Notes: generated by a model from the sequence alone, not told the origin. A stretch of DNA of 64,000 nucleotides from Candidatus Altiarchaeales archaeon (GCA_014727915.1 WJMO01000006.1:160001-224000); one strand, 5' to 3'; shown: positions 2,478-36,091, numbered from the stretch's first letter. A program made the numbers and translations.

Positions 2478-2498
2478 GTTTATCCAGAGCAACTAGGA

Positions 2499-2536
2499 TG
2501 AAACAATATAAGCCAACATAGGTGAAACTGGTTTCA
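2499..2536 (-). promoter_or_regulatory. TGAAAC operator-like sites flanking a TATA-like box
   Basis: TGAAAC at 2499 and 2523, inverted GTTTCA at 2531; minus-strand CTTATATT lies between the direct copies. Confidence 0.55.
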
Positions 2537-3007
2537 TTTAAGGACCACTATGTTTGTCAGGCCTCTCCTACGCCTCTCTAGCAGGTTCTTGGACTCCAGC
2601 CGGTCCAGGTTCCGGGTTACCTTAACCTTTGACAGCCCGGTCTTCTCGGATATCTCACTCTGGAAGATTGTGCCTCCAGAGTCTGAGATCAGCTGGTAGA
2701 CTGTCTTCTCATCCCCATCCAGGCTTCCGAGGTTCTCCAGCCACTTCTCCCTGCCTGAAGGCTCCTGATCCAATCTGCCGCCCTTCAAAGCCAGGTATAT
2801 GCCGATGAAGAACAGTATCACGACACCAGCCAATCCGCCATAGAAGACGGGAGGGACCTTGAAATGGATCATCTCGCAGCTTTCCCCGCAGGTGCAGGAC
2901 TGGGTGCTCATATCGGCGAGAGTGTCTAGGAGAACTGACAATAACGCCACCAGAAAGACCGCCAATAGTATCAGCACAATCCCTACTTCCCGCAATCCGG
3001 CCCTCAT
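2534..3007 (-). CDS. Membrane-anchored winged-HTH regulator (2 TM, Cys-rich loop)
   Basis: Two TM helices around CTCGESC; C-terminal IFQSEISEKTGLSKVKVTRNLDRLESKNLLERRRRGLTNIV. Confidence 0.85.
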   Translation of the reverse strand: MRAGLREVGIVLILLAVFLVALLSVLLDTLADMSTQSCTCGESCEMIHFKVPPVFYGGLAGVVILFFIGIYLALKGGRLDQEPSGREKWLENLGSLDGDEKTVYQLISDSGGTIFQSEISEKTGLSKVKVTRNLDRLESKNLLERRRRGLTNIVVLK

Positions 3008-3013
3008 CTTAAG

Positions 3014-3862: not shown

Positions 3863-3873
3863 GTTGTATCCTC

Positions 3874-4221
3874 TCAGCCGAACACGAAGGCTGATAGTGT
3901 GGGCAGCAGCAGGTACAAGACCATCAACGTCAGAGAGACATAGGTGACTATGCTAACAGCCACCATCGTCCTATGGGCTTTGACGTCGTTCAAGGTGCAT
4001 GTGCCGCCGCACTGCCTTTTGATCTTGAAGTAGAGGGACAAGAGCATGAAAACCGTGCCCGCCGCTATGAAGAAGAGCTTATACCTTGGAAGCTTCAATG
4101 CTGCGGTCATGCTCCCAGCCCCCAATGTCCCGAATATCATGACCAGTATCAGGGGCAGCGTGCAGCAGCTCGACGCTATGATCGTGGCCTTCACCCCCGT
4201 CCAGAATCCCTTCAATCCCAT
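3874..4221 (-). CDS. MerT/MerF-like heavy-metal transport membrane protein
   Basis: ASSCCTLPLIL Cys pair in TM1, three TMs, loop CGGTC. Confidence 0.65.
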   Translation of the reverse strand: MGLKGFWTGVKATIIASSCCTLPLILVMIFGTLGAGSMTAALKLPRYKLFFIAAGTVFMLLSLYFKIKRQCGGTCTLNDVKAHRTMVAVSIVTYVSLTLMVLYLLLPTLSAFVFG

Positions 4222-13855: not shown

Positions 13856-16450
13856 ATGTTCAATATGCGGTGGTTGGTTTTATTCATAGTGTTGGCGCTA
13901 TTATCAGGCTTCACGACTGGCAGGCAGGATCAGGGCATGATGCCCGACCTGGGAAAGCAGAAGCCCGGCGCTGGCATCCCTGAGGTAGAGACCGGCCCCG
14001 GCAGCCAGCCGGCAGACCTGCCGGAGGTGCCCGGGGAGCGGGCGCTCATCTCCGGCGTGCCACACTATTATCAGGCGACCATGGAGGGGGAGATGTGCCC
14101 CAACCTCCTGCCCCTGCTCCTGGGAAGCCCCGTGCCCGCAGGCTACAAGGACTATAAGACCGGGTGCGGGCCGGTTGCTGCAGTGGCTGTTATGGGGTGG
14201 TGGGAGCGCCGGGGGGTAGACGGCCTGCTGCTGCATACGGTGGAGGGGGACGGCCTGCCCCAGGACACGATAATAGAGATAGGCCAGTACGAGTACTTGA
14301 GGAGGCTGCCGGACTGTGACAGCGGCCAGGCGGCGGTGACACCCTCAAGGTTCGAGACAGGATTCCAGAACTACCTGGACGACCACGGCAGCGTGGAATT
14401 CACGGTCACAAAATACAAGATAACCAAGGACAGCGACTTCGACCAGATATGGGATATGGTCAAGGAGGAGATAGACAACGGCCGGCCCCTCGTATACCTG
14501 CTCAGGCATGACGGTCTGCGGCAGGACGCAGCCAACGACCAGGACAACCACAAGCTCGCAGACCACTACATCGTCATAGTAGGATATGATACGGTGGACA
14601 ACCAGCGTGTTCTGGTGGGCCAGTACAACTTCGGCTACGTCGGCTACTACGACCACTACTTCACCCACTGGCTACCCCTCGAGGTCGGAGACTACACAAC
14701 AGCCTATCCAAAGTACCACCTGTTCGCCATCCGGCCTGTCTCAGAGCCGGACTACATGGGAGAGTGCAGCGGGTGGCTGCTGAACACCACCAGGTTCCAC
14801 GAGGCAGACCCCTACGACGGCGTCCAGTCGGAGTACTTCAGGCCCTACCAGGCGGAGTTCACCAACGGCAGCACATGGAAGAAGACCAACGTGTTGGAGA
14901 AGCAGGACGGCATCTGCTTCGTGGCCAGGTGGATAGACTCCGACGAGGACGGCATCTATGACGGGGAGGACAACTGCCCCGACATCTACAACCCAGGCCA
15001 GGAGAACGGCGACGGCGACGATTACGGGGACATATGCGACTACCCGGACATCGTGTTAGAATACGGTTACAGGGACTATTCCGAGGTGGAGTTGGGTGAC
15101 GGGCGGGCGAGGATATCATTCACCATCGACACGAACCTCACCAACCAGGGAACAGACCCCATTGTAGCCGGGACTTCACTGGTTGTGAAGTGGGTGCAGG
15201 AGGCAGTGACAACAGGGGGTGAGAAGGTAACAGCCGATGAAGATGGCGAGATTGTGCCTTTGAAGATAACCCAGGCCAAAGGAAGTAAGAAGCTGATGAT
15301 CATGGAGAACATCCCGGACGAGGATGAAGGCGGCAGCGGGCCTGAACTCATTTTGAACGTGGACGGCATGTTGGACATGCCGTTGGAACGCAGCCAGCAG
15401 GTGACTTTGTCTGCCGGGCTGTTGGAAGGCGGGTCTTATAGCCTGGACTCCCAGACGTTCTCGTTGATATTGGACGAGGGCGAATGCGCCACTGTCACCC
15501 ACACGATATACACCATCGATTCGGTGGATGAGATGGACGGCCATGAGGACAATGAAGTGGTTGAAGTCCCCTACAACAAGCTCAGCGACTGCTTCGGAGT
15601 CGCTGGAATAGACCCTGACGATGTTATAGACAGCATACTCGGGCCTCAAGCTTCCGTGGACGGCGCGGACACCCCTGAGTTGGACAAGGACATCGCCGAA
15701 GCCGGCATAGACCAGATAATAGGGATCCTGCAGACCATAGGACCGGAGGGCGGTACGAACCTCTACCACGACCATTTGACCGTTGACTTCCCCGCGGGCG
15801 CTGTTGACAGGCAGCTGCCGTTGAAGGTGAAGATATTCAGGGGTAGTATGGCGGGGTTCGATCCCGTGGGGGAAGTATATGACATCCAGTTCCCGCCGGG
15901 GCAGAGGCTTAACAAGCCCGTGACATTGTCCATAGGCTATGGGGGTGAAGACCTCGCCGGGGTTGAGGAGGGTTCCCTGGCTGTTCACACTTTCTCCCAG
16001 GGCAGGTGGACTGCCCTGCCATCCGAGGTTGACACGGCATATGATGTTGTGTCAACCCAGCTGAACCATTTCACCCTATACGCACTCGCACCATTAGGTC
16101 AGGGTTCTAAGACGCCGCCGAAGCCGTTCAACAAGTCGACGGCTAAGCCATTCGACAAGCCGGATCTTGGGAAGCCAAATAGATCAGAGATGCGCGGTTT
16201 CAAAGGCCCGGAGGGTAAAACGGGCGGAGAGAAGGCTTTGCTGTTCAAGCACATGAAATCCGGCGAGCAGCTTGTGAAGGTGAAGAACGTGACAAAGGAC
16301 GGCCGCCCCGCCTACCAGGTGCAGAAAAAACGCAGAGCCAGGATACTAGGCATAGTTCCTGTTGATGTGAACGTGGAGACGACAGTCGACGCCAACAGCG
16401 GGGAGAAACTGGGGGAGAATAAGCCCTGGTGGAACTTCCTGGCATTCTAA
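13856..16450 (+). CDS. Secreted papain-fold (C39/C10-like) peptidase with TSP3-like Ca repeats
   Basis: GCGPVA, GRPL, DHYIVIVGYD; DSDEDGIYDGEDNCP; C-terminal KPWWNFLAF. Confidence 0.75.
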   Translation: MFNMRWLVLFIVLALLSGFTTGRQDQGMMPDLGKQKPGAGIPEVETGPGSQPADLPEVPGERALISGVPHYYQATMEGEMCPNLLPLLLGSPVPAGYKDYKTGCGPVAAVAVMGWWERRGVDGLLLHTVEGDGLPQDTIIEIGQYEYLRRLPDCDSGQAAVTPSRFETGFQNYLDDHGSVEFTVTKYKITKDSDFDQIWDMVKEEIDNGRPLVYLLRHDGLRQDAANDQDNHKLADHYIVIVGYDTVDNQRVLVGQYNFGYVGYYDHYFTHWLPLEVGDYTTAYPKYHLFAIRPVSEPDYMGECSGWLLNTTRFHEADPYDGVQSEYFRPYQAEFTNGSTWKKTNVLEKQDGICFVARWIDSDEDGIYDGEDNCPDIYNPGQENGDGDDYGDICDYPDIVLEYGYRDYSEVELGDGRARISFTIDTNLTNQGTDPIVAGTSLVVKWVQEAVTTGGEKVTADEDGEIVPLKITQAKGSKKLMIMENIPDEDEGGSGPELILNVDGMLDMPLERSQQVTLSAGLLEGGSYSLDSQTFSLILDEGECATVTHTIYTIDSVDEMDGHEDNEVVEVPYNKLSDCFGVAGIDPDDVIDSILGPQASVDGADTPELDKDIAEAGIDQIIGILQTIGPEGGTNLYHDHLTVDFPAGAVDRQLPLKVKIFRGSMAGFDPVGEVYDIQFPPGQRLNKPVTLSIGYGGEDLAGVEEGSLAVHTFSQGRWTALPSEVDTAYDVVSTQLNHFTLYALAPLGQGSKTPPKPFNKSTAKPFDKPDLGKPNRSEMRGFKGPEGKTGGEKALLFKHMKSGEQLVKVKNVTKDGRPAYQVQKKRRARILGIVPVDVNVETTVDANSGEKLGENKPWWNFLAF

Positions 16451-18726: not shown

Positions 18727-19299
18727 ATGAGAATGTCCATTGTTTTGCTGGTTATTATGTCGGGTTGCCTCGGAGGCGGGCCCGACGTGGAGGCCGAGCC
18801 GACGACGACTACCATCACCCTGCCCGAGGACTGCGGTTTAGACGTTCCAGTCAGGCTGCAGATGGATGGGGACTGGTGCGGGGTGGCGGTATCCCAGATG
18901 ATCCTGGAATACTATGGGTTATACGCGGACCAGAAGACGCTCTCGGAGGAGATAGTCGGGGACCGTGGAGGCTCCTTAACGCATATGAAGGACGTGCTTG
19001 CAGGCTATGGGCTGGAGGTCGAGGAGAAGAACTATGGTTTGGAGGGTGTCAGCGAATTGGAGAAGGCAGTCTGCGGGGAGAGGTCGCCCGTAATCGTCTT
19101 GCAGAGGATGGGCTTCGAAAACCCGAACAGCCACTACAGGATCGTCGCAGGCTTCGACAGGAGATACGCTTATGTAATCGACCCATACTATGGGCGGGTG
19201 AGATTCACCAGGAACGAGTTCAGGGAGCTGTGGGAGTTCAACGACCCGAACAGGGTGGACAACACCGCCTTGATAGTCAGGGGAGGGGTGAGGGTTTGA
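18727..19299 (+). CDS. C39-like cysteine peptidase, lipoprotein-like
   Basis: SGC lipobox; QMDGDWCG, SHYRIVAGFD, IDPY. Confidence 0.85.
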   Translation: MRMSIVLLVIMSGCLGGGPDVEAEPTTTTITLPEDCGLDVPVRLQMDGDWCGVAVSQMILEYYGLYADQKTLSEEIVGDRGGSLTHMKDVLAGYGLEVEEKNYGLEGVSELEKAVCGERSPVIVLQRMGFENPNSHYRIVAGFDRRYAYVIDPYYGRVRFTRNEFRELWEFNDPNRVDNTALIVRGGVRV

Positions 19300-21143: not shown

Positions 21144-21821
21144 TCAGACTATCTTCCCGTCGACTATCTGTATCTTCTGCCTGGCGTTCTTGGCTATCTT
21201 CGAGTCGTGGGTGACTATCACCAAGGTCTTGCCCTCTTCCTCGTTCAACCTCTTCAGCAGGCCCATGATTGTCTTCCCGGTATTCTGGTCCAGGTTCCCG
21301 GTGGGCTCGTCGGCGAGTATAATCTGGGGATCGTTAGCCAGGCTTCTAGCTACCGCGACCCTCTGCTGCTGTCCGCCGCTCAGCTCCGACGGCCTGTTGC
21401 CCGCCTTGTCGGAGAGGCCGACCAGCTCGATTATCTCCTCTACTTTACTATTCCGCACGGGTTTTGGTGTGCCCTTGAATCTCATGGGGAGTTCGATGTT
21501 CTCGGCTGCGCTCATCGTCGGGATGAGGTTGAACTGCTGGAAAACGAACCCCAGCTTCTCCCTCCTCAACCTGGCCTTCTGAACTCCGTTCAACCCGCTT
21601 ATGCCAACGTCCTCGATGTAGACCTCCCCCCGTGTGGGGGTGTCCAGGCAGCTTATCAGATTCAGCAAGGTGGATTTGCCAGAGCCTGAAGGTCCGATTA
21701 TGCTAGCGAACTCCCCCAACTCAATCGTCAAGTCCACTCCGTTCAATGCCCTGCATTCGTTAGGCTCGCCCTCGTTGTATATCTTGAACAAACCCACACA
21801 GCGTATTTCCCCGTTACTCAT
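21144..21821 (-). CDS. ABC ATPase, LolD/MacB type
   Basis: GPSGSGKS, LSGGQQQRVA, ADEPTGNLD, VTHD. Confidence 0.95.
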   Translation of the reverse strand: MSNGEIRCVGLFKIYNEGEPNECRALNGVDLTIELGEFASIIGPSGSGKSTLLNLISCLDTPTRGEVYIEDVGISGLNGVQKARLRREKLGFVFQQFNLIPTMSAAENIELPMRFKGTPKPVRNSKVEEIIELVGLSDKAGNRPSELSGGQQQRVAVARSLANDPQIILADEPTGNLDQNTGKTIMGLLKRLNEEEGKTLVIVTHDSKIAKNARQKIQIVDGKIV

Positions 21822-22983
21822 AGCGCAACACCTCTATAGGATCGAGCCTCGAAGCAGCCCATGCAGGATATAAGCCTGCCCCCATCCCTAGTATGAGGGA
21901 GAATGCGAATCCTATGGCGATGAGCTCAGGGCTTAATATGGGGGTGAATGACGTGTGGGATTTCACCAGTTCACTGGCTCCATATCCGAGCATGAACCCG
22001 ATGAACCCGCCTATGAGGCTCAACACCGCGGACTCCTCCAATACCTGCATGAGTATGTTGGTTGTGGTGGCGCCGATGGCCTTCATCACCCCAATCTCCC
22101 GCCTGCGTTCCATGACGCTCATGATCATCGTGTTCATTATGCCAATGCCACCCACGATAATGGACACAGCGCCGATGCCGTAGACTGCCATCGTTATGGT
22201 GCCCAACGTGCTCTCCAAGCTCCGGACCAACGTAATAGCAGAGAAAGCCCGGACCGTGTCGAACATGTCGCTTATCTCCTGTTGGATAGGTTCTACATTC
22301 TCGACCTCGTCCACCTTCACCTTTAACTGGGTTATCTTGTCGTCGTCTTCCAAATCCTGCATGGTTGAAAGGGGGACGAAAGCCGCCTCGTCAATTGTTG
22401 AGTCCCCGGTCTCCTCCAGGATGCCCACGACTTCGAAGTGGAAGCTATCGGTGGTGTCGTTCTCGACCCGCTGGTACTCTATCTCGTCGCCGACGTTGTA
22501 CAGTTGGTTGTAGGCGGTCGTGGATCCCAGGAGCACCACATACTGGAAGTCGTCTGATACATCAAGTTTACGACCGTCATCTGCGACTATGTTCTCGCCT
22601 ATCAGGTAGTCCTGGTCTTCAGGGTTCAAGGCCGTGAACTCCAGGGTGCTGGATGAGCCGCCCATCATCCGACCCATCATCCCCCCAAAGCCTCTGTGGC
22701 CCCCGCGGCTTATCCGGTATTCGCCGATTGCCACAACGTCCGTTACGCCTGTTATGTCCCGTATGTCCTGTATCATGTCCTCGGTTATACCGTCCTCGCT
22801 CTCGAAGTCGCGGACGTCGATGACGGCCGCCATGTCACCGAAGGAATCCTGTATCTGCTTGTTCAACCCCTCACCTATGGCTCCGAGGGTGAGTATCAAA
22901 CCTATGCCCATGGCTATGCCCAGCATGGTCAATATGCTGCGGGACTTCTGCCTGAAGACGTTCTTAAACGCGATGTCAAGCAT
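21814..22983 (-). CDS. ABC permease, MacB/FtsX type
   Basis: RSILTMLGI, GIMNTM..SVMERRREIGVMKAIGA, LDPIEVLRYE. Confidence 0.93.
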   Translation of the reverse strand: MLDIAFKNVFRQKSRSILTMLGIAMGIGLILTLGAIGEGLNKQIQDSFGDMAAVIDVRDFESEDGITEDMIQDIRDITGVTDVVAIGEYRISRGGHRGFGGMMGRMMGGSSSTLEFTALNPEDQDYLIGENIVADDGRKLDVSDDFQYVVLLGSTTAYNQLYNVGDEIEYQRVENDTTDSFHFEVVGILEETGDSTIDEAAFVPLSTMQDLEDDDKITQLKVKVDEVENVEPIQQEISDMFDTVRAFSAITLVRSLESTLGTITMAVYGIGAVSIIVGGIGIMNTMIMSVMERRREIGVMKAIGATTTNILMQVLEESAVLSLIGGFIGFMLGYGASELVKSHTSFTPILSPELIAIGFAFSLILGMGAGLYPAWAASRLDPIEVLRYE

Positions 22984-22984
22984 C

Positions 22985-24667
22985 TTACTTCTTCTTACGC
23001 CTCTTGTAGAGCTTGTAACCGCCAACAACCACAACCAAGACTATAACTGCCTTCATTAACAGGGCTGCCAGCCCAGAACCAGAATTCCTATTTGAAGAGC
23101 CCGTGAAAGAGGACATCGCAGTTGAAGAACCACCCCCAAGGTTGAAGGTTTCCACCTGGGTGACTCTCTCACCGTTCAATCCAGCATACTCCAACGTCAA
23201 AGTGAACGGGCCGGACACGGTAGTGTCGAAGGTGAAGGTCGTCTGCTTCGTAGGCTTGATGTCCGACTTGTAGGAGACAATCTCCTGGCTTCCGGTTTGA
23301 GCGTATGCGGAAGTCCCACTATCAGACGTTGATTGCCTGGCACCTCCGCTGGGCCGGACCATACCCCTGCCAGACAACATGGACACCGGATTAGACTGCC
23401 TCTGGCTCGCCCTGTTTTCCCAGGCCTCATCCGTGGACTGGGTGCTACGGTCAAACGTCCGGTTACCCAGGTCCGACGTCTTTACAGTGGCCTTGACTCC
23501 CTCCGCAGCCCGGGTGCCAATGTTAGCGACTTCTATGCGGAGCGAACCACGCTCCTGATCGACGTTTATCACCTCCAATATGACCTGCCCCGACACATCC
23601 AATCCGATGCTCTTCTCATCCGTGTACGAAGTGCCCCCGACCGTATAGTCTATCGTCAAGGGTATCGCATAGGTTTGAATCTCAGCATCCCATGAGATGG
23701 ATATCTCAAACTCTGTCTGCACATCCTCGCCGGACTCGACCGTGCCTATGTGCTTCTCCGCAGTGTCAACTGGGACGAAAGGCTCGGACAGTGTCAGGCT
23801 TGCCGTGACATCATCAGCGGCCGCAGCCCCATAGTTCTTCAAACCCATCTTCAATTCTACCGTCTCTCCCGGACCTGTCGGCTCGTAGCTGACGTTCAAA
23901 ACCTTGAAGTCAATGCCCGCACTCTCAACGTTCAAGCCGAAGGACATGTTTCTGGAGGCTGAAGTGCCGGACTCGTCCGTGTAGTCTATCTTCAAAGAGA
24001 CCATGCACGCCCCCTCAGCAGAAGGCTTTATCTGGTAGCCCAATGTGAAATCATCGCCTTCCTCAATGTCTCCTATGTACTTTCTGGATGAGCCTATAAC
24101 GGTGAGGCAGTCAGACGATAGCGTGGCTTCCAGGTCCTCCACCGAGGAGCGCAACGTACCTTCCAGGACCAGGTCTCCGAGCGTGTCCTTATAGTATGTG
24201 GTCTTCTCCGGGTTCAACTGGAAGAGTGGGTTACCGTATATCCGCAGGGGCACGTCCCATGTGGTGAGCAGGTTGTTCACCGAAGTCCCATCGTATTTGA
24301 AACCGTCATATGATATGCGAACGTTAATCGCTGTCAAACCCGTCTTCGCTCCCTCCTTTACCCTCACAACTACGGGCACGGTCTTGGACTGCTCCGGGTC
24401 GACCCTGCCTATGTAGAATTTCTTGTCGACACTCACGACACCAGTGCTTGGAATGTATACTTCAACGTCGTCAGCGCGAAACCCGCCAGTGTTCTCAATG
24501 GCAAGGTTGAGTATGCCACTGTCACCAGGCCTGAGATTAGAGTCATAGTATGTCGAGTCGAAGTCAACGACCACGTTAGTTGGTGAGGTCGTGCCTGCAG
24601 TAGCAGCCAAGACACCATCTGAAAAAATGCAAAGGAACACCATCAACAACAAAATCCTTTTCACCAT
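22985..24667 (-). CDS. COG1361-like S-layer-domain protein
   Basis: Signal peptide, repeated Ig-like PG....L..N.G...A units, C-terminal TM and basic tail; adjacent to the ABC genes. Confidence 0.8.
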   Translation of the reverse strand: MVKRILLLMVFLCIFSDGVLAATAGTTSPTNVVVDFDSTYYDSNLRPGDSGILNLAIENTGGFRADDVEVYIPSTGVVSVDKKFYIGRVDPEQSKTVPVVVRVKEGAKTGLTAINVRISYDGFKYDGTSVNNLLTTWDVPLRIYGNPLFQLNPEKTTYYKDTLGDLVLEGTLRSSVEDLEATLSSDCLTVIGSSRKYIGDIEEGDDFTLGYQIKPSAEGACMVSLKIDYTDESGTSASRNMSFGLNVESAGIDFKVLNVSYEPTGPGETVELKMGLKNYGAAAADDVTASLTLSEPFVPVDTAEKHIGTVESGEDVQTEFEISISWDAEIQTYAIPLTIDYTVGGTSYTDEKSIGLDVSGQVILEVINVDQERGSLRIEVANIGTRAAEGVKATVKTSDLGNRTFDRSTQSTDEAWENRASQRQSNPVSMLSGRGMVRPSGGARQSTSDSGTSAYAQTGSQEIVSYKSDIKPTKQTTFTFDTTVSGPFTLTLEYAGLNGERVTQVETFNLGGGSSTAMSSFTGSSNRNSGSGLAALLMKAVIVLVVVVGGYKLYKRRKKK

Positions 24668-24722
24668 ATTTTTTCACCTTATTATCCTGAATATCAAGAA
24701 TACACATCCTTAAATATAATAC

Positions 24723-24772
24723 TGAAACAGGGGATATCCCAGCGTGAAACACCTGTAGCAGAATGTGAAACA
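24723..24772 (-). promoter_or_regulatory. Triple TGAAACA direct repeat
   Basis: Copies at 24723, 24745, 24766 (+22,+21); minus-strand TATTTAAG 6 nt after the proximal copy. Confidence 0.7.
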
Positions 24773-24837
24773 TGGGTTTGGGAGGCTTCCCGGGTCGGAT
24801 TAGAGTGGGAAGCCTCCGTTGTGGTGGCTGCAGTGAG

Positions 24838-25347
24838 CTATTGTTTAGTTCCTGCCGGTTGGCCTTCTGCAAAAGGGCATCCACCGCCCCGCATACCCCT
24901 ACCAGGAAATCCACCCCCCATCTTCCCGGGGCATTTATCCGGGTTCTCCTGGCAGTAGGCATGGTGGGCCTCCATTATCTCCTCGTGTGTGGCGTCCTCG
25001 CCGAGGCCGAGCTTGGATAGCATCTCACTGTGCCTTTCCTCCATCTCCTGGTGGCGTTCCTCCATACGGGCCTTCACTGCAATATGGAACTCCCCTATCG
25101 TATCGTCCTCGGTCAGGCCGAGGTCGGATAGTCTCTTCTCCCACATGGCTTCTCTTATCTCTTCTCTCGTAGCATCTTCCGTAAGCCCGAGCTCCTCCAG
25201 GTTCACAGGCTCATGTCCTTTCATAAACCCGTGTCTGGAGAATCCCTTGCTTCCCCCTGCCGCTTCCGTTGCGTTGACGGCCACCACCAGTCCTAGGACC
25301 AGCAGTGCTGCCAAGCCAGCGGCAAACAGTTTGGTTTTACCATCCAC
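24838..25347 (-). CDS. Secreted helical protein with three LGL.ED.T repeats (Spy/CpxP/ZraP-like character)
   Basis: GAGGTGA SD, GTG start, signal peptide, His/Met/Glu-rich helices, G/M/R tail. Confidence 0.7.
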   Translation of the reverse strand: MDGKTKLFAAGLAALLVLGLVVAVNATEAAGGSKGFSRHGFMKGHEPVNLEELGLTEDATREEIREAMWEKRLSDLGLTEDDTIGEFHIAVKARMEERHQEMEERHSEMLSKLGLGEDATHEEIMEAHHAYCQENPDKCPGKMGGGFPGRGMRGGGCPFAEGQPAGTKQ

Positions 25348-25375
25348 TTTGGTTCACCTCGAAGGATTCATTGGA

Positions 25376-25425
25376 TGAAACAGGGCATAAGTTTGGATGA
25401 AACAGTTGTGGCAGAAGATGAAACA
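25376..25425 (-). promoter_or_regulatory. Triple GATGAAACA direct repeat
   Basis: TGAAACA at 25376, 25398, 25419 (+22,+21). Confidence 0.75.
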
Positions 25426-25430
25426 TGACT

Positions 25431-25841
25431 TTAAAGCTTCAGCTTGACGAGGTTGGTGTTTCCCAGGGGCTTCTTCTCAACGACACCCCGTTGCTCCAGC
25501 TTGGACAGGACCCTTGAGACCTTCACCTTGGATATTCCGGTCTCTGCAACGAGGTACATCTGCTCCATCTTGCCCTCCTTCAACAGCACCTCTATTATCT
25601 TCCGCTCCTCAGCGGGCAATACCTTCAGCATCGAGTAGGCCTGCCTCTGGGTCACCTTCCACTGGAACATTAGTATTATCAGAGCTCCAACACCCATGGA
25701 GACAGCTGTCACCCCGTAGACCACCACAGGCATGGACGAGCCGGTGTCTTCAATGTAGGACCCGTTAAGTATGGACAGTAGTATCCCCAAGCCGAACACT
25801 GACGTTAATGCTATCGCTAACCGCTTCTCCGAGACTTCCAT
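25431..25841 (-). CDS. Membrane-anchored winged-HTH regulator (2 TM)
   Basis: EQMYLVAETGISKVKVSRVLSKLEQRGVVEKKPLGNTNLV. Confidence 0.85.
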   Translation of the reverse strand: MEVSEKRLAIALTSVFGLGILLSILNGSYIEDTGSSMPVVVYGVTAVSMGVGALIILMFQWKVTQRQAYSMLKVLPAEERKIIEVLLKEGKMEQMYLVAETGISKVKVSRVLSKLEQRGVVEKKPLGNTNLVKLKL

Positions 25842-25844
25842 CTT

Positions 25845-26123
25845 CTATCCGCCTATGTCCTCCTTCATCTCAAGGTATGTTTTCTTGTCTATCTCCCCTG
25901 ACACATACCGTTTCTTCAGCACGTCCAATGGTGTTTCAACCCTGCGGGAGCCGCGTACAAGCCACCAGAATATGAGGGCAACGACCACCACTATGACGAG
26001 ATTCCACACCATGAAGGTCGGAACCAATCCGAATATGGGCTCACGACCCAGGAAAGGATGCGGCGCCCTGCATGTGGAGAACATTGCGGCCCTGCCGCCG
26101 AACTCGGCAAAAGTCTGGTTCAT
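25845..26123 (-). CDS. SHOCT-domain membrane protein
   Basis: TM then PLDVLKKRYVSGEIDKKTY; GAGGTGA SD. Confidence 0.8.
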   Translation of the reverse strand: MNQTFAEFGGRAAMFSTCRAPHPFLGREPIFGLVPTFMVWNLVIVVVVALIFWWLVRGSRRVETPLDVLKKRYVSGEIDKKTYLEMKEDIGG

Positions 26124-26169
26124 AAGAATATCACCTCAGTACTATACAACTAATAAGAATAAAAAAGGG

Positions 26170-26219
26170 TGAAACAGGCGATATCCAGGGTTGAAACAGC
26201 CGTATCAAAAAATGAAACA
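26170..26219 (-). promoter_or_regulatory. Triple TGAAACA direct repeat
   Basis: Copies at 26170, 26192, 26213 (+22,+21) in a divergent intergenic region. Confidence 0.7.
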
Positions 26220-26271: not shown

Positions 26272-27060
26272 ATGGACTTCATAGTATTATCGGTTTCGGG
26301 TTTTTTGATAGGGGCTTTAGGCACGATAATAGGCTCGGGAGGGGGTTTTCTTGTAGTCCCACTGCTTCTCCTGCTAACCGACCTCTCACCCCAGGTTATC
26401 GCGGGGACCTCCTTGACAGTGGCTTTGTTCACATCCCTGTCGGGTTTTGTCGCATATCACAGGCAGAGGAAGATCGACTACCTTGTCGCGGGAGTATTTG
26501 TCCTAGCTCTGATACCGGCGACTTTCATCGGCGTGGAAGTAAACCAGAGGATAGAAGCGGACCAGTTCAGGATGATACTGGGGGTCCTGCTGGTGATGAT
26601 CTCAACCCTGCTATTCAAGAGGGTCAACATCCGGATACCGCATTATATCCCCTACCCCATCCACTATGACCGGGAGAAGACGGACAGCCAGGGAGTCACA
26701 TACAAGTATCACGTGAGCATGAGGAGGGGGGCGCTCATGAGCTTCGTTATCGGGGTGGTCTCGCCGGTTGTGGGCATCGGCGGAGGAGTCCTCAGGACGC
26801 CTGCGATGGTCGTTTTGGAAGGCATGCCAGCCCGTATCGCAGCGCCAACAAGCCAGGTAACGACGATATTCGGGGGTGCGATTGCAGTGGCGTTGTTCGC
26901 CATGAAATCCCAGATCAACATATCATATGCCATACCGCTTATAGTGGGGGTGATAGTGGGGGCGCAGGTTGGAGCCCTATTCTCAGAGAGATACGGGCTT
27001 ATGGTCCGGAAGATTACCTCAGCCGCCCTTTTCATAACTGGGCTCTGGCTGCTGCTGTAG
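26272..27060 (+). CDS. TauE/SafE family transporter
   Basis: GSGGGFLVVP, GTSL, GIGGG repeats; GGAGGT SD. Confidence 0.88.
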   Translation: MDFIVLSVSGFLIGALGTIIGSGGGFLVVPLLLLLTDLSPQVIAGTSLTVALFTSLSGFVAYHRQRKIDYLVAGVFVLALIPATFIGVEVNQRIEADQFRMILGVLLVMISTLLFKRVNIRIPHYIPYPIHYDREKTDSQGVTYKYHVSMRRGALMSFVIGVVSPVVGIGGGVLRTPAMVVLEGMPARIAAPTSQVTTIFGGAIAVALFAMKSQINISYAIPLIVGVIVGAQVGALFSERYGLMVRKITSAALFITGLWLLL

Positions 27061-28205: not shown

Positions 28206-28439
28206 ATGATGAAAAAAACTCAATTTCCCCTTGTTATTGAAAAAGATGAGGATGGGTTCTATGTTGTAGAATGCCCAGTGTTGGAGGGGTGTTATTCTCA
28301 GGGTAAAACCTTGGATGAGGCGATGAAGAATATTCGGGAAGTCATTGAGATCTGTCTTGAGGAATCGTCCACTAAAGATTTTCTGAAAAACTATCACCCA
28401 GTAGAGTTTAGCTTCCATACTATTACTGTTGGTTCATGA
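28206..28439 (+). CDS. hicB: HicB-family antitoxin
   Basis: IEKDEDGFYVVECPVLEGCYSQGKTLDEAMKNIREVI. Confidence 0.9.
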   Translation: MMKKTQFPLVIEKDEDGFYVVECPVLEGCYSQGKTLDEAMKNIREVIEICLEESSTKDFLKNYHPVEFSFHTITVGS

Positions 28440-28663
28440 TGGCATCGAAGCTGCCCATCGTTTCTGGCAAACAAGCAGTCAAAGCGTTCAACAAACTTGG
28501 TTATGCTGTTATTAGAAGGAGGAGTAGCCATATTCGCCTGGAACATGAAAGTAAGAAAAAGATAACAATCCCAGACCACAAAACACTAGGAAAAGGAATA
28601 CTAAGAAAACTAATCCGCGATGCTGAGATAACAATAGAAGAATTCAACAAATTACTAAAGTAA
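28436..28663 (+). CDS. hicA: HicA-family toxin
   Basis: LPIVSGK...LGY...SSH...TIPDH..LGKGILRKLIR; overlaps hicB stop. Confidence 0.9.
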   Translation: MMASKLPIVSGKQAVKAFNKLGYAVIRRRSSHIRLEHESKKKITIPDHKTLGKGILRKLIRDAEITIEEFNKLLK

Positions 28664-30575: not shown

Positions 30576-33500
30576 TTATTCGAAGTTTAGTACTCCGTCC
30601 CGCAATTTGAATGTTCCGTTGTCTAGTTCTATTTTGGAGTCTGCGATTGATACTGTCAGTTCCCTTGCAGTGAATGTTGATTCTATCACTCTCATTGTGC
30701 CGTTGACGTAGATGTCGTCTACTGTACAAGTGTTGTCTGAGGTAACATTCCAGTCTCCGTATTCGGGGCATGATTCTCCACTGCATCCTGCTTCGAGTTG
30801 GATGGTTATGTTGATTGCTTCGCTGGTTGAGTATATGCCCTCTGTTGTCTCTATTTCTATAGTGAATTCGTAGCTGTTGCCGGATGTCCCTGTTGCGTTG
30901 ACACTCCAGCTGGGACTGCATGATTGCCCGTATGTCAGTGGTCCACAGTCGTAGGGGTTTTGGCTGGTTGTGTAGAATGGTGTTCCACTATTCATCGGGA
31001 TTGCTCCTTTTCCTATGGTGACCGCTGTGCTGTTTACTGCGGTCCCGTTCATGTATTCGTCTCCTGGCGTGATTTCGCATATTATGCCATCTCCTATTGT
31101 GTAGTTGGAGTATTCCAGCGTATTGCTTGTTTCATCGCTTATCACTTCACCGTTTTTGAACCAGCGGTAATGGGCAGTTGGCGTGTCATCGTCATCCCCT
31201 AGTCCCAGGTGGTTGCATTCCAGGTTCTCGCTGTACGGTGGCGAGGAGGGCAGTATGTATGCAAGAGTGACATAGGGTTTGCATCCTCCTCCGCTAACGC
31301 AAGATGATGTGCAGGTCACTTCTGTGTCGTTCCATGTTCCATCCCCTCCCCCTATGCATGTCCTGTAGCTTTGTCCGTCGCAGTAACGGTAGTTTTGGCT
31401 GTACTGGCTGCCGTCGTGTACGCACCCGTCTGATAGGCTTGAGCAGAATTCCCCGCTGTCGTCATAGTCGTCCGGGTAGCAGTAACCTCCACTACAGACA
31501 TCATCTGGGTCGCTGCCTTCCTGTTCCTTGTCTTCACAGTCTCCGCCATCAGATACTTGTGTTAGGCAGTCTCCGTCTTTGTTGCAGTATTCTCCTGCTG
31601 AACAGTTACTGTGCATTACACACCCGATCGTGTATTCAAGATAAATGTCTTCTGGAAGCCATTGCACTTCGTTCAGTTTAGGATCTGGCTCCCCTGGTGG
31701 TCCATCACAGTCTGTTTCTGATTCGACGTCTAGATGCAGCTTAAATCCTATTATACTCTTGTTTTCGTTTAAGTAACTGTCTTGCACTTCTGTTAGTATG
31801 TCTTCGTCAAGGCTGCAGTCACAATCATGCCATGATCCGTCATCCCAGCTCATATCACAGATGGTCGCTATTTCAGTTGAGCCTATGCCTTTATCGTCGC
31901 ATGATAGGCCTCCAAAATCTTCATCTAGAATGTTTATTGTTAGTTCGTCTCCACTATTGCCTGAACCTATTGCAGAGCAGTCTCCACTGGAACTTCCTTT
32001 TAGCCTCATTGTTTTGACGTCTAAGGTGGCGTTTTCGATGATCTCTGAGATGTTGTATGTCCACCATCCCATGGAAAAATCCCCGTATTCCAGTGCGCTG
32101 CCTGTTGCTCTTATAAGATTGTCTCTTAAGTCGCTTCCACTGCAGTTGTTTTTATCGCAGCTTTGGAAATCTAGTTCTTCTACATCGTTGTATTCTTGAA
32201 GGGGTTTAATAGTCGGGTCTATGATGATGGGATATTCTGCTTCCAATAGCCATTTTTTCGGGAGATTCAATCGTAGGATCGTATCTCCCAACTCTTTGTA
32301 GATTGTATATGATGTGTCGAGTTTTTCACTGTGGTTGTCTGTGATGAACGGCCTCTGTATTGTGAAATACGATAATTCCACTGGTATTCTGCCTTGTTGT
32401 TTCTTTAGTTTGAATGGAATATCTTCTTCAACGAGTTTTTCACTGCCATCCCAGTTTATACCATTGACAATCGGGGTTAAGTGCTCTGGATAATCAAGGA
32501 TATATGTTATTTCAAAGTCCTGTGTTGAAGATGCAAAGAGATTTGAAGAGTCTACAATGATGGATTCCTTTAGCAAATCGTCTGTTAGTTCATACTTGAT
32601 GTCAACACCTTCACCAAGAATATTCGCATAAAATGGTTCGTCGTTAAACATGGATAAGCTGTTTGAATCATAGAATAATTTTTGATTAGTGGTTGGCTTT
32701 ATTTTAAAGGATAGTGTTGTGTCTAATGCTGTGAAATCAACGGTCTTATCCATGTGGAATACTGCACTATAGTGTTTTTTCTCGTATTTAATGTCCTCTT
32801 CGGCTGAAACCAGGGTGGTTGTGGTTGTTGAGGTGTCCATTGTTGTAGTGGTTAGTTCAATTAGGGTGGTGGTTGTAGTTTCAATTGTCGTGGTTGTGGT
32901 CTCTGCTGGGAGGGTTGTAGTGGTTGAGGATGGTTGGAGTGTGATAGTTGTTGTGGTATCTAATAATGGAATGGTGGTGGTTGTCTCACTCGTGGAGGTA
33001 GTTGAGGATGTGCTTGTTGTGCTTACCAGGATTTTGCTTTCATCCTGTGTTGATGAGGCCAGATCTGGATCCAGGATTACGGTAACATTACCACAGTCGT
33101 CTACCAGGCATGTCACGTTCACGGTAAAATCAAAGAACTGATTTTGGTAAACTATTTCAGAAGATACCAAAGGATCAAGAATAGATATATCTACTTTTGG
33201 AAGTGCAAGGACCGTGTAATTGAATACTGCTACGTTGTTGGTTTCGTCCAGTTCTTCGACAGAGTCTTTGCTGTCTGCTATCACGTATACATGGTTGGTT
33301 CCTGTGTTGTTTGTGACGTTCCATGTTAAATCAACAAGATAATCTTCTCCAACGTCAAGCAGGCCCATTGATGAATTATATATTTCTTCTGCTCCGGTGG
33401 GTGTTGCTACTATAATGCTTATTTCCGCGCTTGAGGTAGTTGATGCTAGTGTCCCGTCATTTGTGACCGATGCGTTTATAGTGATGATCTGGTTTTCATA

Positions 33501-35639
33501 GAGGTTCTGTGGCGTGACATTCAAGGTTGAGTTGAAGTCGGGCATATCCGCACCGATTGCCGTGAAAATTGTGTTATGATCAATGAGCGCCCATACGTAT
33601 TTATTGATGGTATCGACTCCAGTTATTGCTTCTTCAAGCCATTCTGAAGCGGTTTCATTCCACCAGTGAATTTTTAGAGTTTCTTCTGGAACGGTTAATG
33701 CACTGGAATTATAGGGGATTTTCAACAAGAAATAATTGAATGATCCACTGATCTCAACATTCACATATTTACCTATGCTACTGTTATCACCGCCAGTTGG
33801 AGCAGAGATTATATCAAATCCTGAGAAATATGCAAGGGAATCCAAACTGTTTAGGATTCCAAGTATGCCCTCTGTTTCGTTAGTTGGTGGTTCTGGTTTT
33901 ACTAGTATTGTTGCATAAGCCTGGTTATTTGCTTCATCAGTTTCTTCAATATCATCTTGGGAGTCTATTTCTACAAATATTGTATGGTTATTTGCATCGG
34001 GGATATTCCATGATACGCCAACTTGTTTACTTCCTCCTGCTTCGACAACATCCGCAATGCTTGAACCTATGTATACTCCTCCATCACTTATGTTACCATC
34101 ATAAAAACTAACATTAACGTCATATGCATTGCTACTACCCTGGTTTTCAACTGTAAATGTAAGGTTAACTAACTCCCCATCATAGTATCTAAAACAGTCC
34201 TGTAGTTGTGTGGTTAGGGATTTGCCATCATATTCTCCCATATTGAAATTCATAAGATCGGCGAGTGTGGGGGCCATATCCAGAACACTGTAGTTAACGT
34301 CTCCATAGCTACATCCGCCGAACCGTGGAGAAATGTACATCATCGGAACAAAGGTATCTGTGCGATAAAGTCCCCCGTGCATGCCCTCTTTTTCTTCGTT
34401 CATGATGTAATAGCCTGATTCGACATTGGATAGAATGATTATGTCCCCTGCCCGTTGAGGATAAAGCATATTGACCCTATCAGCAAAGGGGTAGTCTGAG
34501 GGATCAAGAGAATCCAGGCTTGCAGAATTATTATTTCCTGTATAGACTTTATACTCTGATTCCCCCTCATATCTCACCAGTACCTTGTCTATTCCATCCA
34601 TATCATACAAAGCCTGAGCAGCACGGTTAACTGTGGCATTAGTCGGATAAGCATCCCAGGGTATTGAATAACTAGTTTGATTAAACTTCAGATATACATA
34701 AGCGGAATTACCAATGGTTGCGACAACCGCAGTAGTATTACTATAATCATTTAAAAGAAGATAATTAGTTTTTGGTTCAGTGGCAAAATCTTCACCCTCA
34801 AGAACACTCTCGATATCTTCACGAGATATGGCTAATGACGAATTCACATCACTTTGTCCATGATCACTTATTACAACAATTAAAGTGTCCTCACTCTTAT
34901 TGAGACTCATCAATTTTCCATAAATACTATCGACTACATTTATCTCATTCAATATCATATCATTAGCATCATCAGTATCGGTCCCAGAATAACCACTGAC
35001 ATCATGATAGCCCTGAAGATAAACAACAGTAATATTGTAAGGGCTAGAAAGATGTTCTCTTGTTAGAATACCCATTCCGTTTTCAGCTTTTATGACCCAG
35101 TTTTTTAATTGTAATTTTGCTGAAGCCAATGAAATACCAACCAGACCATATGCTTCATAGTGTATATGTGTAGCATCTTTCTCTAGAAATTCTCCAAATA
35201 ATTGACTTGTTAATTCTGAATTGTCTGCTTTTTTATATATTGTATCCGCTAGCAAATCATTGTTAACACCTAAAAAAGGAATAACTAAATCCGTTTCTAA
35301 TCCAATATTATATGTCCTATATGTTGAACTTGTCCTGTCAAACCAATTTATACCATTTGAACTGTGATTTCTTGGATATCTCCCAGTAAATATGGATGGG
35401 TGCGCAGCTGGCGAGCTCCCTGGAAAGATGGTTGTTGTATTTACGAAGTATACTGAATTTGAAAAAATACGATTTTCACTATTTTCATAACCCCAATATA
35501 GTCGTTCTGAGGGGATTGCATCAATTAGGACGATTACAACATTTTTGAATTGAACATTTTCTGCATTCACAACTGGCAGGAATAATAGGAATACCAAACC
35601 CAAGATTAATAATTGAGTTTTGTATTTTTTCATTATCAT
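30576..35639 (-). CDS. Giant secreted protein: AP-superfamily phosphodiesterase + CARDB + Thr linker + YPxxIDPT module + Cys-rich/Ig-like domains
   Basis: Signal peptide; LIDAI, FPGSSPAAH..TG, SDHG, GMHGG; two E..E.NN CARDB ends; EYPIIIDPT; start at ATGA overlap. Confidence 0.85.
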   Translation of the reverse strand: MIMKKYKTQLLILGLVFLLFLPVVNAENVQFKNVVIVLIDAIPSERLYWGYENSENRIFSNSVYFVNTTTIFPGSSPAAHPSIFTGRYPRNHSSNGINWFDRTSSTYRTYNIGLETDLVIPFLGVNNDLLADTIYKKADNSELTSQLFGEFLEKDATHIHYEAYGLVGISLASAKLQLKNWVIKAENGMGILTREHLSSPYNITVVYLQGYHDVSGYSGTDTDDANDMILNEINVVDSIYGKLMSLNKSEDTLIVVISDHGQSDVNSSLAISREDIESVLEGEDFATEPKTNYLLLNDYSNTTAVVATIGNSAYVYLKFNQTSYSIPWDAYPTNATVNRAAQALYDMDGIDKVLVRYEGESEYKVYTGNNNSASLDSLDPSDYPFADRVNMLYPQRAGDIIILSNVESGYYIMNEEKEGMHGGLYRTDTFVPMMYISPRFGGCSYGDVNYSVLDMAPTLADLMNFNMGEYDGKSLTTQLQDCFRYYDGELVNLTFTVENQGSSNAYDVNVSFYDGNISDGGVYIGSSIADVVEAGGSKQVGVSWNIPDANNHTIFVEIDSQDDIEETDEANNQAYATILVKPEPPTNETEGILGILNSLDSLAYFSGFDIISAPTGGDNSSIGKYVNVEISGSFNYFLLKIPYNSSALTVPEETLKIHWWNETASEWLEEAITGVDTINKYVWALIDHNTIFTAIGADMPDFNSTLNVTPQNLYENQIITINASVTNDGTLASTTSSAEISIIVATPTGAEEIYNSSMGLLDVGEDYLVDLTWNVTNNTGTNHVYVIADSKDSVEELDETNNVAVFNYTVLALPKVDISILDPLVSSEIVYQNQFFDFTVNVTCLVDDCGNVTVILDPDLASSTQDESKILVSTTSTSSTTSTSETTTTIPLLDTTTTITLQPSSTTTTLPAETTTTTIETTTTTLIELTTTTMDTSTTTTTLVSAEEDIKYEKKHYSAVFHMDKTVDFTALDTTLSFKIKPTTNQKLFYDSNSLSMFNDEPFYANILGEGVDIKYELTDDLLKESIIVDSSNLFASSTQDFEITYILDYPEHLTPIVNGINWDGSEKLVEEDIPFKLKKQQGRIPVELSYFTIQRPFITDNHSEKLDTSYTIYKELGDTILRLNLPKKWLLEAEYPIIIDPTIKPLQEYNDVEELDFQSCDKNNCSGSDLRDNLIRATGSALEYGDFSMGWWTYNISEIIENATLDVKTMRLKGSSSGDCSAIGSGNSGDELTINILDEDFGGLSCDDKGIGSTEIATICDMSWDDGSWHDCDCSLDEDILTEVQDSYLNENKSIIGFKLHLDVESETDCDGPPGEPDPKLNEVQWLPEDIYLEYTIGCVMHSNCSAGEYCNKDGDCLTQVSDGGDCEDKEQEGSDPDDVCSGGYCYPDDYDDSGEFCSSLSDGCVHDGSQYSQNYRYCDGQSYRTCIGGGDGTWNDTEVTCTSSCVSGGGCKPYVTLAYILPSSPPYSENLECNHLGLGDDDDTPTAHYRWFKNGEVISDETSNTLEYSNYTIGDGIICEITPGDEYMNGTAVNSTAVTIGKGAIPMNSGTPFYTTSQNPYDCGPLTYGQSCSPSWSVNATGTSGNSYEFTIEIETTEGIYSTSEAINITIQLEAGCSGESCPEYGDWNVTSDNTCTVDDIYVNGTMRVIESTFTARELTVSIADSKIELDNGTFKLRDGVLNFE

Positions 35640-36091
35640 ATTAAACCCCACACCATAACAATTGGAATAAAAATCAAACATGAATAGAAAATCAACAAAA
35701 TAGATAAGAGAATTATTTTATAGTTAGGTGAGTGATTAAATCTTTTTTCAAACAAGTATAGCATTCCTAAGAAAATAGGAGTGTAAAAAATACCATTAAT
35801 GCCTACAGTAAGCATTGACAAAATAATAAAAAGATATACTCCAAGTAAAGAGAGTGTATTCAGTATTTCATTATTGGTATTAGAGATGGCATTTAACACT
35901 GGATCGAAAAAAGTCATTATATGACCAAATAGTTCAAAAAAAAGACTAATTACAAGCCCATATTGAAAAACTAAAATGAGAATGAAGATTGTTTGAGATA
36001 CTAGTAAAATTATAAAAAAGAGGATAGATGTTAAATGTCTCAACCAGTTTTCTTTTATATCCTTTTGTATAGTGGCTAGTGTCTTGTTCAT
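35636..36091 (-). CDS. Small multi-TM protein
   Basis: ATGA overlaps at both ends; paralogue of 30090-30551. Confidence 0.75.
   Translation of the reverse strand: MNKTLATIQKDIKENWLRHLTSILFFIILLVSQTIFILILVFQYGLVISLFFELFGHIMTFFDPVLNAISNTNNEILNTLSLLGVYLFIILSMLTVGINGIFYTPIFLGMLYLFEKRFNHSPNYKIILLSILLIFYSCLIFIPIVMVWGLI

Follow-up and report, generated by a model that had tools for sequence, protein, structure and literature searches.

We analysed a 64,000-nucleotide (nt) stretch of DNA from a Candidatus Altiarchaeales archaeon (GCA_014727915.1, WJMO01000006.1:160001-224000), which we call the window and number from its first letter. Between positions 21,144 and 26,219 it carries, on the minus strand, six genes, for a SHOCT-domain membrane protein, a predicted transmembrane winged helix-turn-helix (wHTH) regulator of Pfam family DUF7343, a secreted helical-repeat protein, a CARDB-domain cell-surface protein, and the permease and ATPase of a MacB-type ATP-binding cassette (ABC) transporter, together with three arrays of short direct repeats (Table 1). 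An earlier reading of this region, made from the sequence alone (the sequence-only reading), had placed three TGAAACA copies spaced +22/+21 base pairs (bp) at each of three promoters, and its coordinates proved exact: the plus-strand copies lie at 24723, 24745 and 24766, at 25376, 25398 and 25419, and at 26170, 26192 and 26213, with the same spacing at all three sites. As all genes of the unit are on the minus strand, the repeat reads TGTTTCA in gene sense, with spacing +21/+22. Nine of the 19 TGAAACA copies found on both strands of the window are in the three arrays; shuffled windows had a mean of 9.44 copies (standard deviation 3.33), and 19 or more were found in none of 100.

The spacers between the repeats were conserved too, and each array is therefore better described as a 50-bp composite module. 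When the window was scored with a 50-bp weight matrix made from 46 arrays, the window's three included, the three modules gave 60-66 bits, whereas the runner-up site on either strand reached only -1.0 bits, and the maxima of five mononucleotide shuffles of the window lay between -15 and -22. Because the next best score in the window was so low, we concluded that the module is not a general promoter feature. Module 3, in gene sense, consists of three TGTTTCA at +21/+22; its first spacer contains a further copy, inverted and imperfect, and its second the box GGATATC. The module lies in the divergent intergenic region common to the SHOCT-regulator pair and a TauE-family gene. Module 2 occupies most of the 83-nt gap 3' of the regulator stop codon, and the Shine-Dalgarno sequence GAGGTGA lies between it and the GTG of the secreted protein. 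The hairpin preceding module 1 folded as RNA at -24 kcal/mol (z -5.62, a value equalled by none of 200 shuffles) and is probably a transcript 3' end or an insulator. RNA folding of the three arrays themselves was no better than that of shuffles (z -0.79, +2.21 and -0.32), and Rfam gave no match in the region and only three tRNAs across the window; we therefore dropped the reading of the arrays as RNA elements. From the results presented here we consider it reasonably probable that the three modules serve as operator-promoters for a DUF7343 regulator that is anchored in the membrane, controls its own expression and has a SHOCT partner, and that together they define one small envelope regulon. 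From the membrane, the regulator would control its own operon, the secreted helical-repeat protein and the CARDB-MacB-ABC operon.

The regulator matched DUF7343 (PF24034) over residues 78-134 at 56.9 bits, above the cut-off of 27.6, and is thus a member of the family; further wHTH matches were to MarR_2 and TrmB. Its AlphaFold2 model, with a predicted local distance difference test (pLDDT) score of 79.9, has hydrophobic helices at residues 5-33 (29 residues) and 39-60 (22 residues) followed by a wHTH with wing at 77-134. Both hydrophobic helices were kept in 38 aligned sequences. The membrane-tethered wHTH proposed by the sequence-only reading is supported, as a prediction, by the model and the family match. 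The outer loop is short, conserved and acidic (NG-YIEDTGS--P), and Lys/Arg residues precede helix 1 and follow helix 2, an arrangement that predicts a cytoplasmic location for the wHTH. The regulator was 64-81% identical to its relatives (the first 119 listed, and the 37 aligned with it), almost all of the named ones from Candidatus Altiarchaeota, and the recognition helix, G-L-S-K-V-K-V-S-R, was invariant or nearly so in the 38 aligned sequences. When the regulator profile was searched against 1.84 billion cluster representatives, it yielded 1,875 relatives at an expectation (E) value of 0.001 or less, 10 of them at 1e-30 or less, and in many proteins of about 300 residues the match was confined to the wHTH and the last membrane helix; the few close and many partial matches indicate that the compact regulator is a minor offshoot of a broad group of membrane wHTH proteins. 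Three cluster representatives of 286-290 residues (P0130, P0132 and P0137) matched the profile in two stretches each and appear to be tandem two-copy fusions, which would fit a dimeric working unit. A profile comparison of the regulator alignment with PDB sequences gave at best a SigF fragment (E 0.0011), followed by an Lrs14-like regulator (E 0.0058).

The SHOCT gene ends 3 nt before the regulator start codon in the window, and a 4-nt overlap of the two genes is common among the related loci. In 38 of these 40 loci the SHOCT gene immediately preceded the regulator gene, the exceptions being one at a contig end (L036) and L039. The window protein matched SHOCT (PF09851) at 22.5 bits (E 9.1e-5), below the 27-bit cut-off; 31 of 32 orthologues matched at E 0.01 or less, the best at 8e-9. 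Judging from gene order and junctions, the SHOCT protein is likely to be a translationally coupled partner of the regulator. Co-folding of the two proteins gave a score of 0.00 in both runs, which, made without controls, is evidence neither way. The original description of the SHOCT domain found no function for it (PMC3581485). SHOCT-like domains, mainly bacterial ones, have since been predicted to anchor or assemble sub-membrane complexes, and they occur beside transcription or wHTH regulators and ABC transport operons (PMC11237479).

Table 1. Features of the regulon candidate and of the paralogous locus in the window
Feature	Position	Strand	Remarks
ABC ATPase, MacB/LolD/FtsE type	21144-21821	-	Pfam ABC_tran 123.7 bits
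MacB/FtsX-type ABC permease	21814-22983	-	Pfam MacB_PCD 93.6 bits, FtsX 81.8 bits
Cell-surface protein, 560 aa, COG1361 "S-layer domain" type	22985-24667	-	Pfam NPCBM_assoc 39.9 bits, CARDB 36.5 bits
Module 1 (operator-promoter candidate)	24723-24772	-	55 nt before CARDB ATG at 24667; 63.1 bits
GC-rich hairpin, 11 bp	24781-24817	-	between helical-protein stop and module 1
Secreted protein, 169 aa, no known family	24838-25347	-	signal peptide, linker, helical repeats, tail
Module 2 (operator-promoter candidate)	25376-25425	-	28 nt before GTG at 25347 (secreted helical protein); 59.9 bits
Predicted transmembrane transcription regulator, 136 aa	25431-25841	-	N-terminal two-helix hairpin and C-terminal wHTH; Pfam DUF7343
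Single-pass membrane protein, 92 aa	25845-26123	-	C-terminal SHOCT domain (Pfam SHOCT)
Module 3 (operator-promoter candidate)	26170-26219	-	46 nt before SHOCT ATG at 26123; 66.2 bits
TauE/SafE-family permease	26272-27060	+	Pfam TauE 152.3 bits; divergent from module 3
Thioredoxin-like protein	541-1263	-	paralogue locus (541-4221)
DsbD_2 and cupredoxin-like membrane protein	1206-2477	-	Gly/Cys tail; paralogue locus
Related but different site	2499-2536	-	3' of paralogue; 21 nt before ATG (2477) of DsbD_2/cupredoxin-like gene
Paralogous DUF7343 membrane wHTH	2534-3007	-	Pfam DUF7343 47.2 bits
4Fe-4S protein	3014-3862	-	paralogue locus
MerT-like protein	3874-4221	-	paralogue locus

Conservation of the modules and proposed assignment of the regulator

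The 40 related loci came from one scan of species-representative genomes with the regulator alignment. In 26 of them (L001-L026, the close loci, mostly labelled Altiarchaeota) the regulator was 62-74% identical to the query, and in 14 (L027-L040, the distant loci, mostly labelled Woesearchaeota) it was 39-53% identical. Of the 26 close loci, all but a 1.6-kb contig (L019) had an array with 21/22 spacing. In total, 46 modules scored above 35 bits in 347,762 bp, every one of them in gene sense. With the three in the window, this made 49 modules, whose targets were 22 helical-repeat, 11 SHOCT, 9 CARDB and 7 other signal-peptide or lipoprotein genes (those of L010:105 and L010:1688, labelled "other" by the script, were assigned by eye); all of the targets are membrane or secreted proteins. 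A module headed the regulator operon in every locus whose operon head was on the contig. The genes were ordered either helical-SHOCT-HTH and then CARDB-MacB-ABC, or SHOCT-HTH-helical-CARDB-MacB-ABC, with a module before each transcription unit. The proposal of the sequence-only reading that the arrays link the SHOCT-regulator pair, the secreted protein and the CARDB-MacB-ABC operon was thus upheld, in the form of a shared cis-element conserved in related loci.

The window modules are about 65-70% alike over their 50 bp, spacers included, as they would be if a single promoter cassette had recently been duplicated and had no regulator of its own, its repeats being elements of promoter architecture recognised, for example, by a paralogue of a general factor. 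Across the 46 modules of the 26 genomes, however, the GTTTCA cores, their 21/22 spacing and a small number of spacer positions are constant while the spacers otherwise diverge freely, a pattern that points to selection on the sites rather than shared descent, and we regard duplication as a very improbable explanation.

A search for phased hexamers in the distant loci again picked out GTTTCA, which 8 of the 14 have as two or three repeats. Four of these (L027, L029, L031 and L032) have three GTTTCA at 20-22 bp, three (L035, L037 and L038) have two GTTTCA 22 bp apart, and one (L034) has one GTTTCA and one copy with a single mismatch. The repeats flank an A/T box about 35-50 nt before a gene for a secreted protein, which is followed by the SHOCT gene and then the regulator gene. 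From these arrays we concluded that the invariant core of the candidate operator is two GTTTCA, two helical turns apart, around the probable TATA box. Absence of the arrays from orthologous loci was one outcome that the sequence-only reading would have taken as refuting its proposal; they were there, in full in 25 of the 26 close loci and reduced in 8 of the 14 distant ones. Regulator and repeats stay together across two phyla, and the other genes change.

Two further sets of sites resemble the modules without sharing their layout. At the head of the CARDB-MacB-ABC operon in two close loci (L012:520-600 and L021:1056-1122) there are two repeats 10 bp apart, a TATA-like box, and TGTTACA-tcc, the last within a TGTTAC-N8-GTAACA inverted repeat; in L021 a regulator paralogue, 37% identical, is encoded divergently beside this variant operator. 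The window itself encodes a DUF7343 paralogue (2534-3007), 28% identical to the main regulator and with the recognition helix S-K-V-K-V-T-R. The site 3' of this gene had been taken by the sequence-only reading as related to the arrays, and related it is, with TGAAACA at 2499, TGAAACT at 2523 and an inverted GGTTTCA at 2530 on the window strand (in gene sense TGAAACC-A-GTTTCA, 11 nt, TTATAT and TGTTTCA-tcc), but its layout differs, with a spacing of 24 and an inverted element, and its score was below the listed hits of the matrix scan. The pairing of paralogous regulators with paralogous operators supports assignment of the repeats to the DUF7343 family.

Several observations weigh against our interpretation. 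The arrays used for the matrix were picked for having at most two mismatches to the repeats, so the apparent conservation of the repeats is inflated by a circular step; independent evidence comes only from the conservation of the spacers and from three further modules that the matrix itself detected (L008:4963, L010:105 and L010:1688). The CARDB-MacB-ABC operon, or its start, was present in 15 of the 26 close and none of the 14 distant loci, which makes the exporter a lineage-specific member of the regulon. No array was seen in 6 of the 14 distant loci, 5 of which have less than 1.6 kb of upstream sequence. Finally, the link between the regulator and the repeats is one of adjacency, co-conservation and autoregulatory position, and their co-occurrence is partly built in, because all loci were fetched through the HTH gene.

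A rival explanation is a different soluble factor, encoded elsewhere, for which the modules would be the operators and the DUF7343/SHOCT pair just one target operon, encoding, for example, membrane proteins with another role. In its favour, part of the module-HTH co-occurrence comes from the HTH-based choice of loci, the link between DUF7343 and the repeats is a predicted one, and the window does encode other DNA-binding proteins, among them the paralogue at 2534-3007. Nevertheless, no DNA-binding gene other than the HTH gene goes with the module in every locus, the two are kept together across both phyla despite changing neighbours, and the recognition helix, like the repeat core, is invariant or nearly so. 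In L021, moreover, the variant operator adjoins the 37%-identical HTH paralogue, so that operator and regulator variants are paired. We therefore think a separate soluble factor unlikely, and propose that the DUF7343 regulator itself probably binds the repeats.

Probable position of the core promoter and direction of control

The order of elements in the 50-bp module, in gene sense, is heptamer 1, an imperfect inverted copy (TGywACr, positions 13-19), heptamer 2, a conserved WTAT box and heptamer 3. Alignment of the 46 arrays gave the consensus tGTTTCA nTTTtTG yw ACrG n TGTTTCA nnnnA rn WTAT nnyy TGTTTCA nCnAtt, in which WTAT, at positions 36-39 and preceded by an A at 33, is the only conserved A/T box. 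The distance from module end to ATG was 14-15 nt in 7 of the 49 modules, and a Shine-Dalgarno motif was absent from 6 of those 7; most helical-protein genes have a GAGGTGA Shine-Dalgarno sequence 13-22 nt 3' of repeat 3, with the start codon at 27-34 nt. An archaeal TATA box lies about 26 nt upstream of the transcription start. A TATA box downstream of repeat 3 cannot fit into the 14-15-nt gaps, nor before a Shine-Dalgarno sequence at 13-22 nt, which places it inside the module between repeats 2 and 3, at the WTAT box. The core promoter thus probably sits within the module, with WTAT as its likely, weak TATA, a possibility that the sequence-only reading of the arrays had overlooked. Transcription would start about 12-14 nt 3' of the module, repeat 2 would take the position of the transcription factor B (TFB) recognition element, and repeat 3 would lie between TATA and start. 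With two helical turns from one to the next, the repeats face the same side of the helix and enclose the likely TATA box.

In the AT-rich distant loci the equivalent box resembles a good TATA (TTTTTATTAA, AATATAGATA and AAGAATATATC). Two features of the window speak against this placement: its own WTAT boxes (GGGATATCC, TGGATATCG and AACTTATGC) are poor as TATA, and better A/T-rich boxes (TATTATATTTAAGG and TTTTTTATTCTTATTAG) are found 3' of modules 1 and 3. At these two modules the true TATA may be the downstream box, and all three repeats would then form an upstream activating site. The upstream regions of tRNA genes, which we read as a TATA reference for this organism, were too few and unclear.

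These boxes bear directly on the direction of control. The same regulator and the same operators could serve activation, with WTAT either a deliberately weak TATA or replaced by a TATA just 3' of repeat 3; the membrane-bound regulator, sitting on repeats 1-3, would on signal recruit or stabilise TATA-binding protein (TBP) and TFB, in the manner of the transmembrane regulators characterised so far. Such a scheme would make sense of a box between repeats 2 and 3 that is far from the consensus TATA in this genome and of the strong A/T boxes directly 3' of repeat 3 in modules 1 and 3. ArnR has been described as a membrane-bound activator (PMC6396743). Sites on one face, 22 bp apart and flanking TATA, could also clamp the bend induced by TBP. 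On the other hand, in the seven modules ending 14-15 nt before ATG, repeat 3 separates the box from the start, and in characterised archaeal systems a site in that position usually blocks recruitment of polymerase. As a complete alternative, the activator scheme is possible but in our judgement doubtful. Within the operator-promoter model that we prefer, we give an even chance to the view that the regulator at rest represses by occluding TFB or RNA polymerase and is released by a signal received through its SHOCT partner or its outer loop, activation being nearly as likely.

Target proteins and the possible signal

The secreted protein of the window has, after its signal peptide, a linker rich in Gly, Arg, Met and His, a helical core of three L-G-L-x-E-D-A-T-x-E-E-I-x-E-A repeats, and a Gly/Met/Cys tail. 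Its 18 orthologues have a signal peptide, a Gly/Arg/Met-rich linker, two to four repeats, a Gly/Met tail and, in some, Cys pairs. The sequence-only reading had called the protein His/Met-rich, and by our own count from the translation the window copy does have 8 His and 9 Met in its 169 residues; this richness did not extend to the orthologues, in which the only invariant columns were the start Met, two Leu and two Ala. That no His or Met is invariant apart from the start Met counts against our interpretation of the signal, given below, and weakens the reading of the protein as a metal binder.

The AlphaFold2 model of the protein (pLDDT 74.6, and above 90 for about residues 50-140) has helices at 61-75, 84-113 and 121-134. 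A Foldseek comparison of the model with the PDB returned 46 matches, none of which reached E 0.001 or was to a chain of Spy, CpxP or ZraP; the best, at E 1.9, was to a J-domain. At the sequence level, the window protein had no Pfam match above cut-off, and neither it nor any of the 18 orthologues matched the CpxP, Spy or ZraP families of Pfam at E 0.01 or less; the Spy model of NCBIfam gave 16.8 bits against a cut-off of 174, over residues 6-72, signal peptide included. A profile comparison of its alignment with PDB sequences stayed at chance level (best E 0.046), the best named lead in the ESM Atlas was DUF2680 at 0.81, under the level considered meaningful, and a word-index search gave eight relatives, none of them named. 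Eight of the 18 orthologues weakly matched the Pfam family Mu-like_Pro (Mu-like prophage protein I; best E 5.7e-5), a match that probably reflects a shared helical repeat motif; phage prohead proteases were also among the structural neighbours of the protein in the Atlas.

In the CARDB-MacB-ABC operon, the surface protein has a signal peptide, CARDB/NEW3 immunoglobulin-like domains, a C-terminal membrane anchor and a basic tail, and its orthologues (45-61% identity) were found 3' of a module in related loci. The permease ATG at 22983 is one base after the CARDB stop codon, and the ATPase start and permease stop overlap by 8 nt. With MacB_PCD, FtsX and a separate ABC_tran all above cut-off, the transporter is of the MacB/FtsX type (type VII); the best NCBIfam matches of the ATPase were LolD, MacB and FtsE, none of them reaching the equivalog cut-off. 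A TATA-like box (TTTTTATAG) of the divergent TauE gene is 7-17 nt from the outer repeat of module 3, and it is possible that this gene is an extra target in this genome only; as a conserved member of the regulon it was rejected, a homologue being present in none of the 40 related loci.

The regulator paralogue of the window belongs to a locus (541-4221) that has a GTTTCA-type site of its own and, from its predicted proteins (Table 1), seems to be a unit for handling thiols or soft metals. In seven of the distant loci (L027, L029, L032, L034, L035, L037 and L038) the operon opens with a gene whose secreted product has a tail rich in Gly and Met, with a Cys-Pro-Met or Cys-Pro-Tyr-Met terminus in five of the seven, and the SHOCT proteins of the distant loci have N-terminal tails rich in Gly, Met and Tyr; the composition of these tails hints at ligands of the Cu(I)/Ag(I) type. 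In Haloferax alexandrinus, a SHOCT membrane protein and a COG1361 protein were induced by silver stress (PMC10694973), a weak lead for which homology is unchecked. Based on the Gly/Met/Cys-rich outward tails, the MerT/DsbD genes of the paralogue locus and this lead, we tentatively suggest, at low confidence, envelope or soft-metal/thiol stress as the signal. A still more speculative extension, in which we place little confidence, is a kinase-free DUF7343/SHOCT device of Altiarchaeota and DPANN, in which a sensorless regulator would clamp TATA on both sides through same-face GTTTCA repeats and would be switched by its SHOCT partner, while the outward tail of that partner and the secreted proteins with Gly/Met/Cys tails would report soft-metal/thiol stress at the cell surface. 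If true, it would give the SHOCT domain its first function and add a new form of gating of the archaeal core promoter.

Elsewhere in the window, upstream of the locus, we observed several Peptidase_C39-like proteins on the plus strand (13856-16450, 864 residues, and 18727-19299, a lipoprotein-like protein of 190 residues). A HicB-like antitoxin gene (28206-28439) and a HicA toxin gene (28436-28663), also on the plus strand and overlapping by 4 nt, border a GC-poor stretch (28-42 kb of the window, GC 0.35-0.48 vs about 0.54 elsewhere). That stretch encodes, at 30576-35681 on the minus strand, a surface protein of 1701 residues with a type I phosphodiesterase domain, CARDB domains and Thr-rich linkers. 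A 102-nt tRNA at 49248-49349 on the minus strand, found by Rfam (53.7 bits) and not reported by ARAGORN, probably carries an intron.

Significance and relation to known systems

Altiarchaeota and DPANN are uncultivated, and to our knowledge almost nothing is known of their gene regulation. The modules described here provide a defined candidate regulon open to in vitro tests, with a 50-bp operator-promoter of clear consensus and a candidate regulator; they give SHOCT, a domain without a known function, a fixed partner, and they lead to a set of targets made up wholly of surface and secreted proteins, a MacB-type exporter among them. If confirmed, direct repeats bracketing TATA would add a regulatory layout to the few that have been characterised in archaea, and the matrix would serve to annotate this regulon in metagenomes.

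The sequence-only reading had called the system undescribed. We found no literature on the system as a whole, on DUF7343 or, among the matches listed, on a TGTTTCA-type motif in archaea, but the class to which the regulator is predicted to belong is known. Transmembrane regulators are defined as having a DNA-binding domain and at least one membrane region, and a census counted 1,384 of them in 404 archaeal species (PMC10269533); ArnR and ArnR1 of Sulfolobus are membrane-bound and oligomeric and bind several promoters (PMC6396743), and BcrR controls an ABC exporter (PMC3968067, PMC10269533). Like ToxR, CadC, BcrR and ArnR/ArnR1, the DUF7343 regulator is predicted to combine a DNA-binding domain and membrane helices in one polypeptide and to act without a kinase. 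Unlike them, it has its predicted membrane hairpin at the N terminus and its wHTH at the C terminus, its DNA-binding domain is DUF7343 rather than OmpR-, XRE- or ArnR-like, it has an obligatory SHOCT membrane neighbour, and its candidate operator is made of direct repeats two turns apart bracketing TATA. Its outer loop, too, is different, being only about 5-12 residues long, from which we conclude that the regulator has no sensor domain of its own.

A kinase-free two-gene unit of a membrane-associated helical protein and a wHTH regulator is also seen in the pairs formed by HAAS proteins and PadR-like wHTH regulators and in other SHOCT-linked membrane signalling pairs; these are mainly bacterial, however, and their wHTH proteins (PadR, GntR) are soluble (PMC11237479). 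The DUF7343/SHOCT pair did not appear in the passages of that survey that mention SHOCT, and the supplementary tables there and in the archaeal census (PMC10269533) may list the family.

The Cpx, Zra and Spy systems were the model invoked by the sequence-only reading, and they share with the unit a sensor at the level of the membrane, a small, secreted, all-helical protein and co-regulated exporters. The analogy is not supported by the secreted protein, which by sequence and by fold gave no match to CpxP, Spy or ZraP. There is, moreover, no histidine kinase or response regulator here: the kinase and receiver domains that are the hallmark of Cpx, Zra, Bce and Lia were absent from the six unit genes by Pfam, and none were conserved in the related loci, so that the circuit is kinase-free as had been proposed.

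In the layout of its candidate operators, the unit can be compared with Ss-LrpB of Sulfolobus solfataricus, a soluble Lrp protein whose 15-bp palindromic boxes are about four turns apart and lie upstream of TATA. Both have three regularly spaced sites on one face of the DNA in their own control region, an arrangement suggesting cooperative binding and wrapping; the sites of Ss-LrpB are palindromes placed upstream of the core promoter, whereas those described here are 6-7-bp direct repeats, two turns apart, placed around its predicted TATA box.

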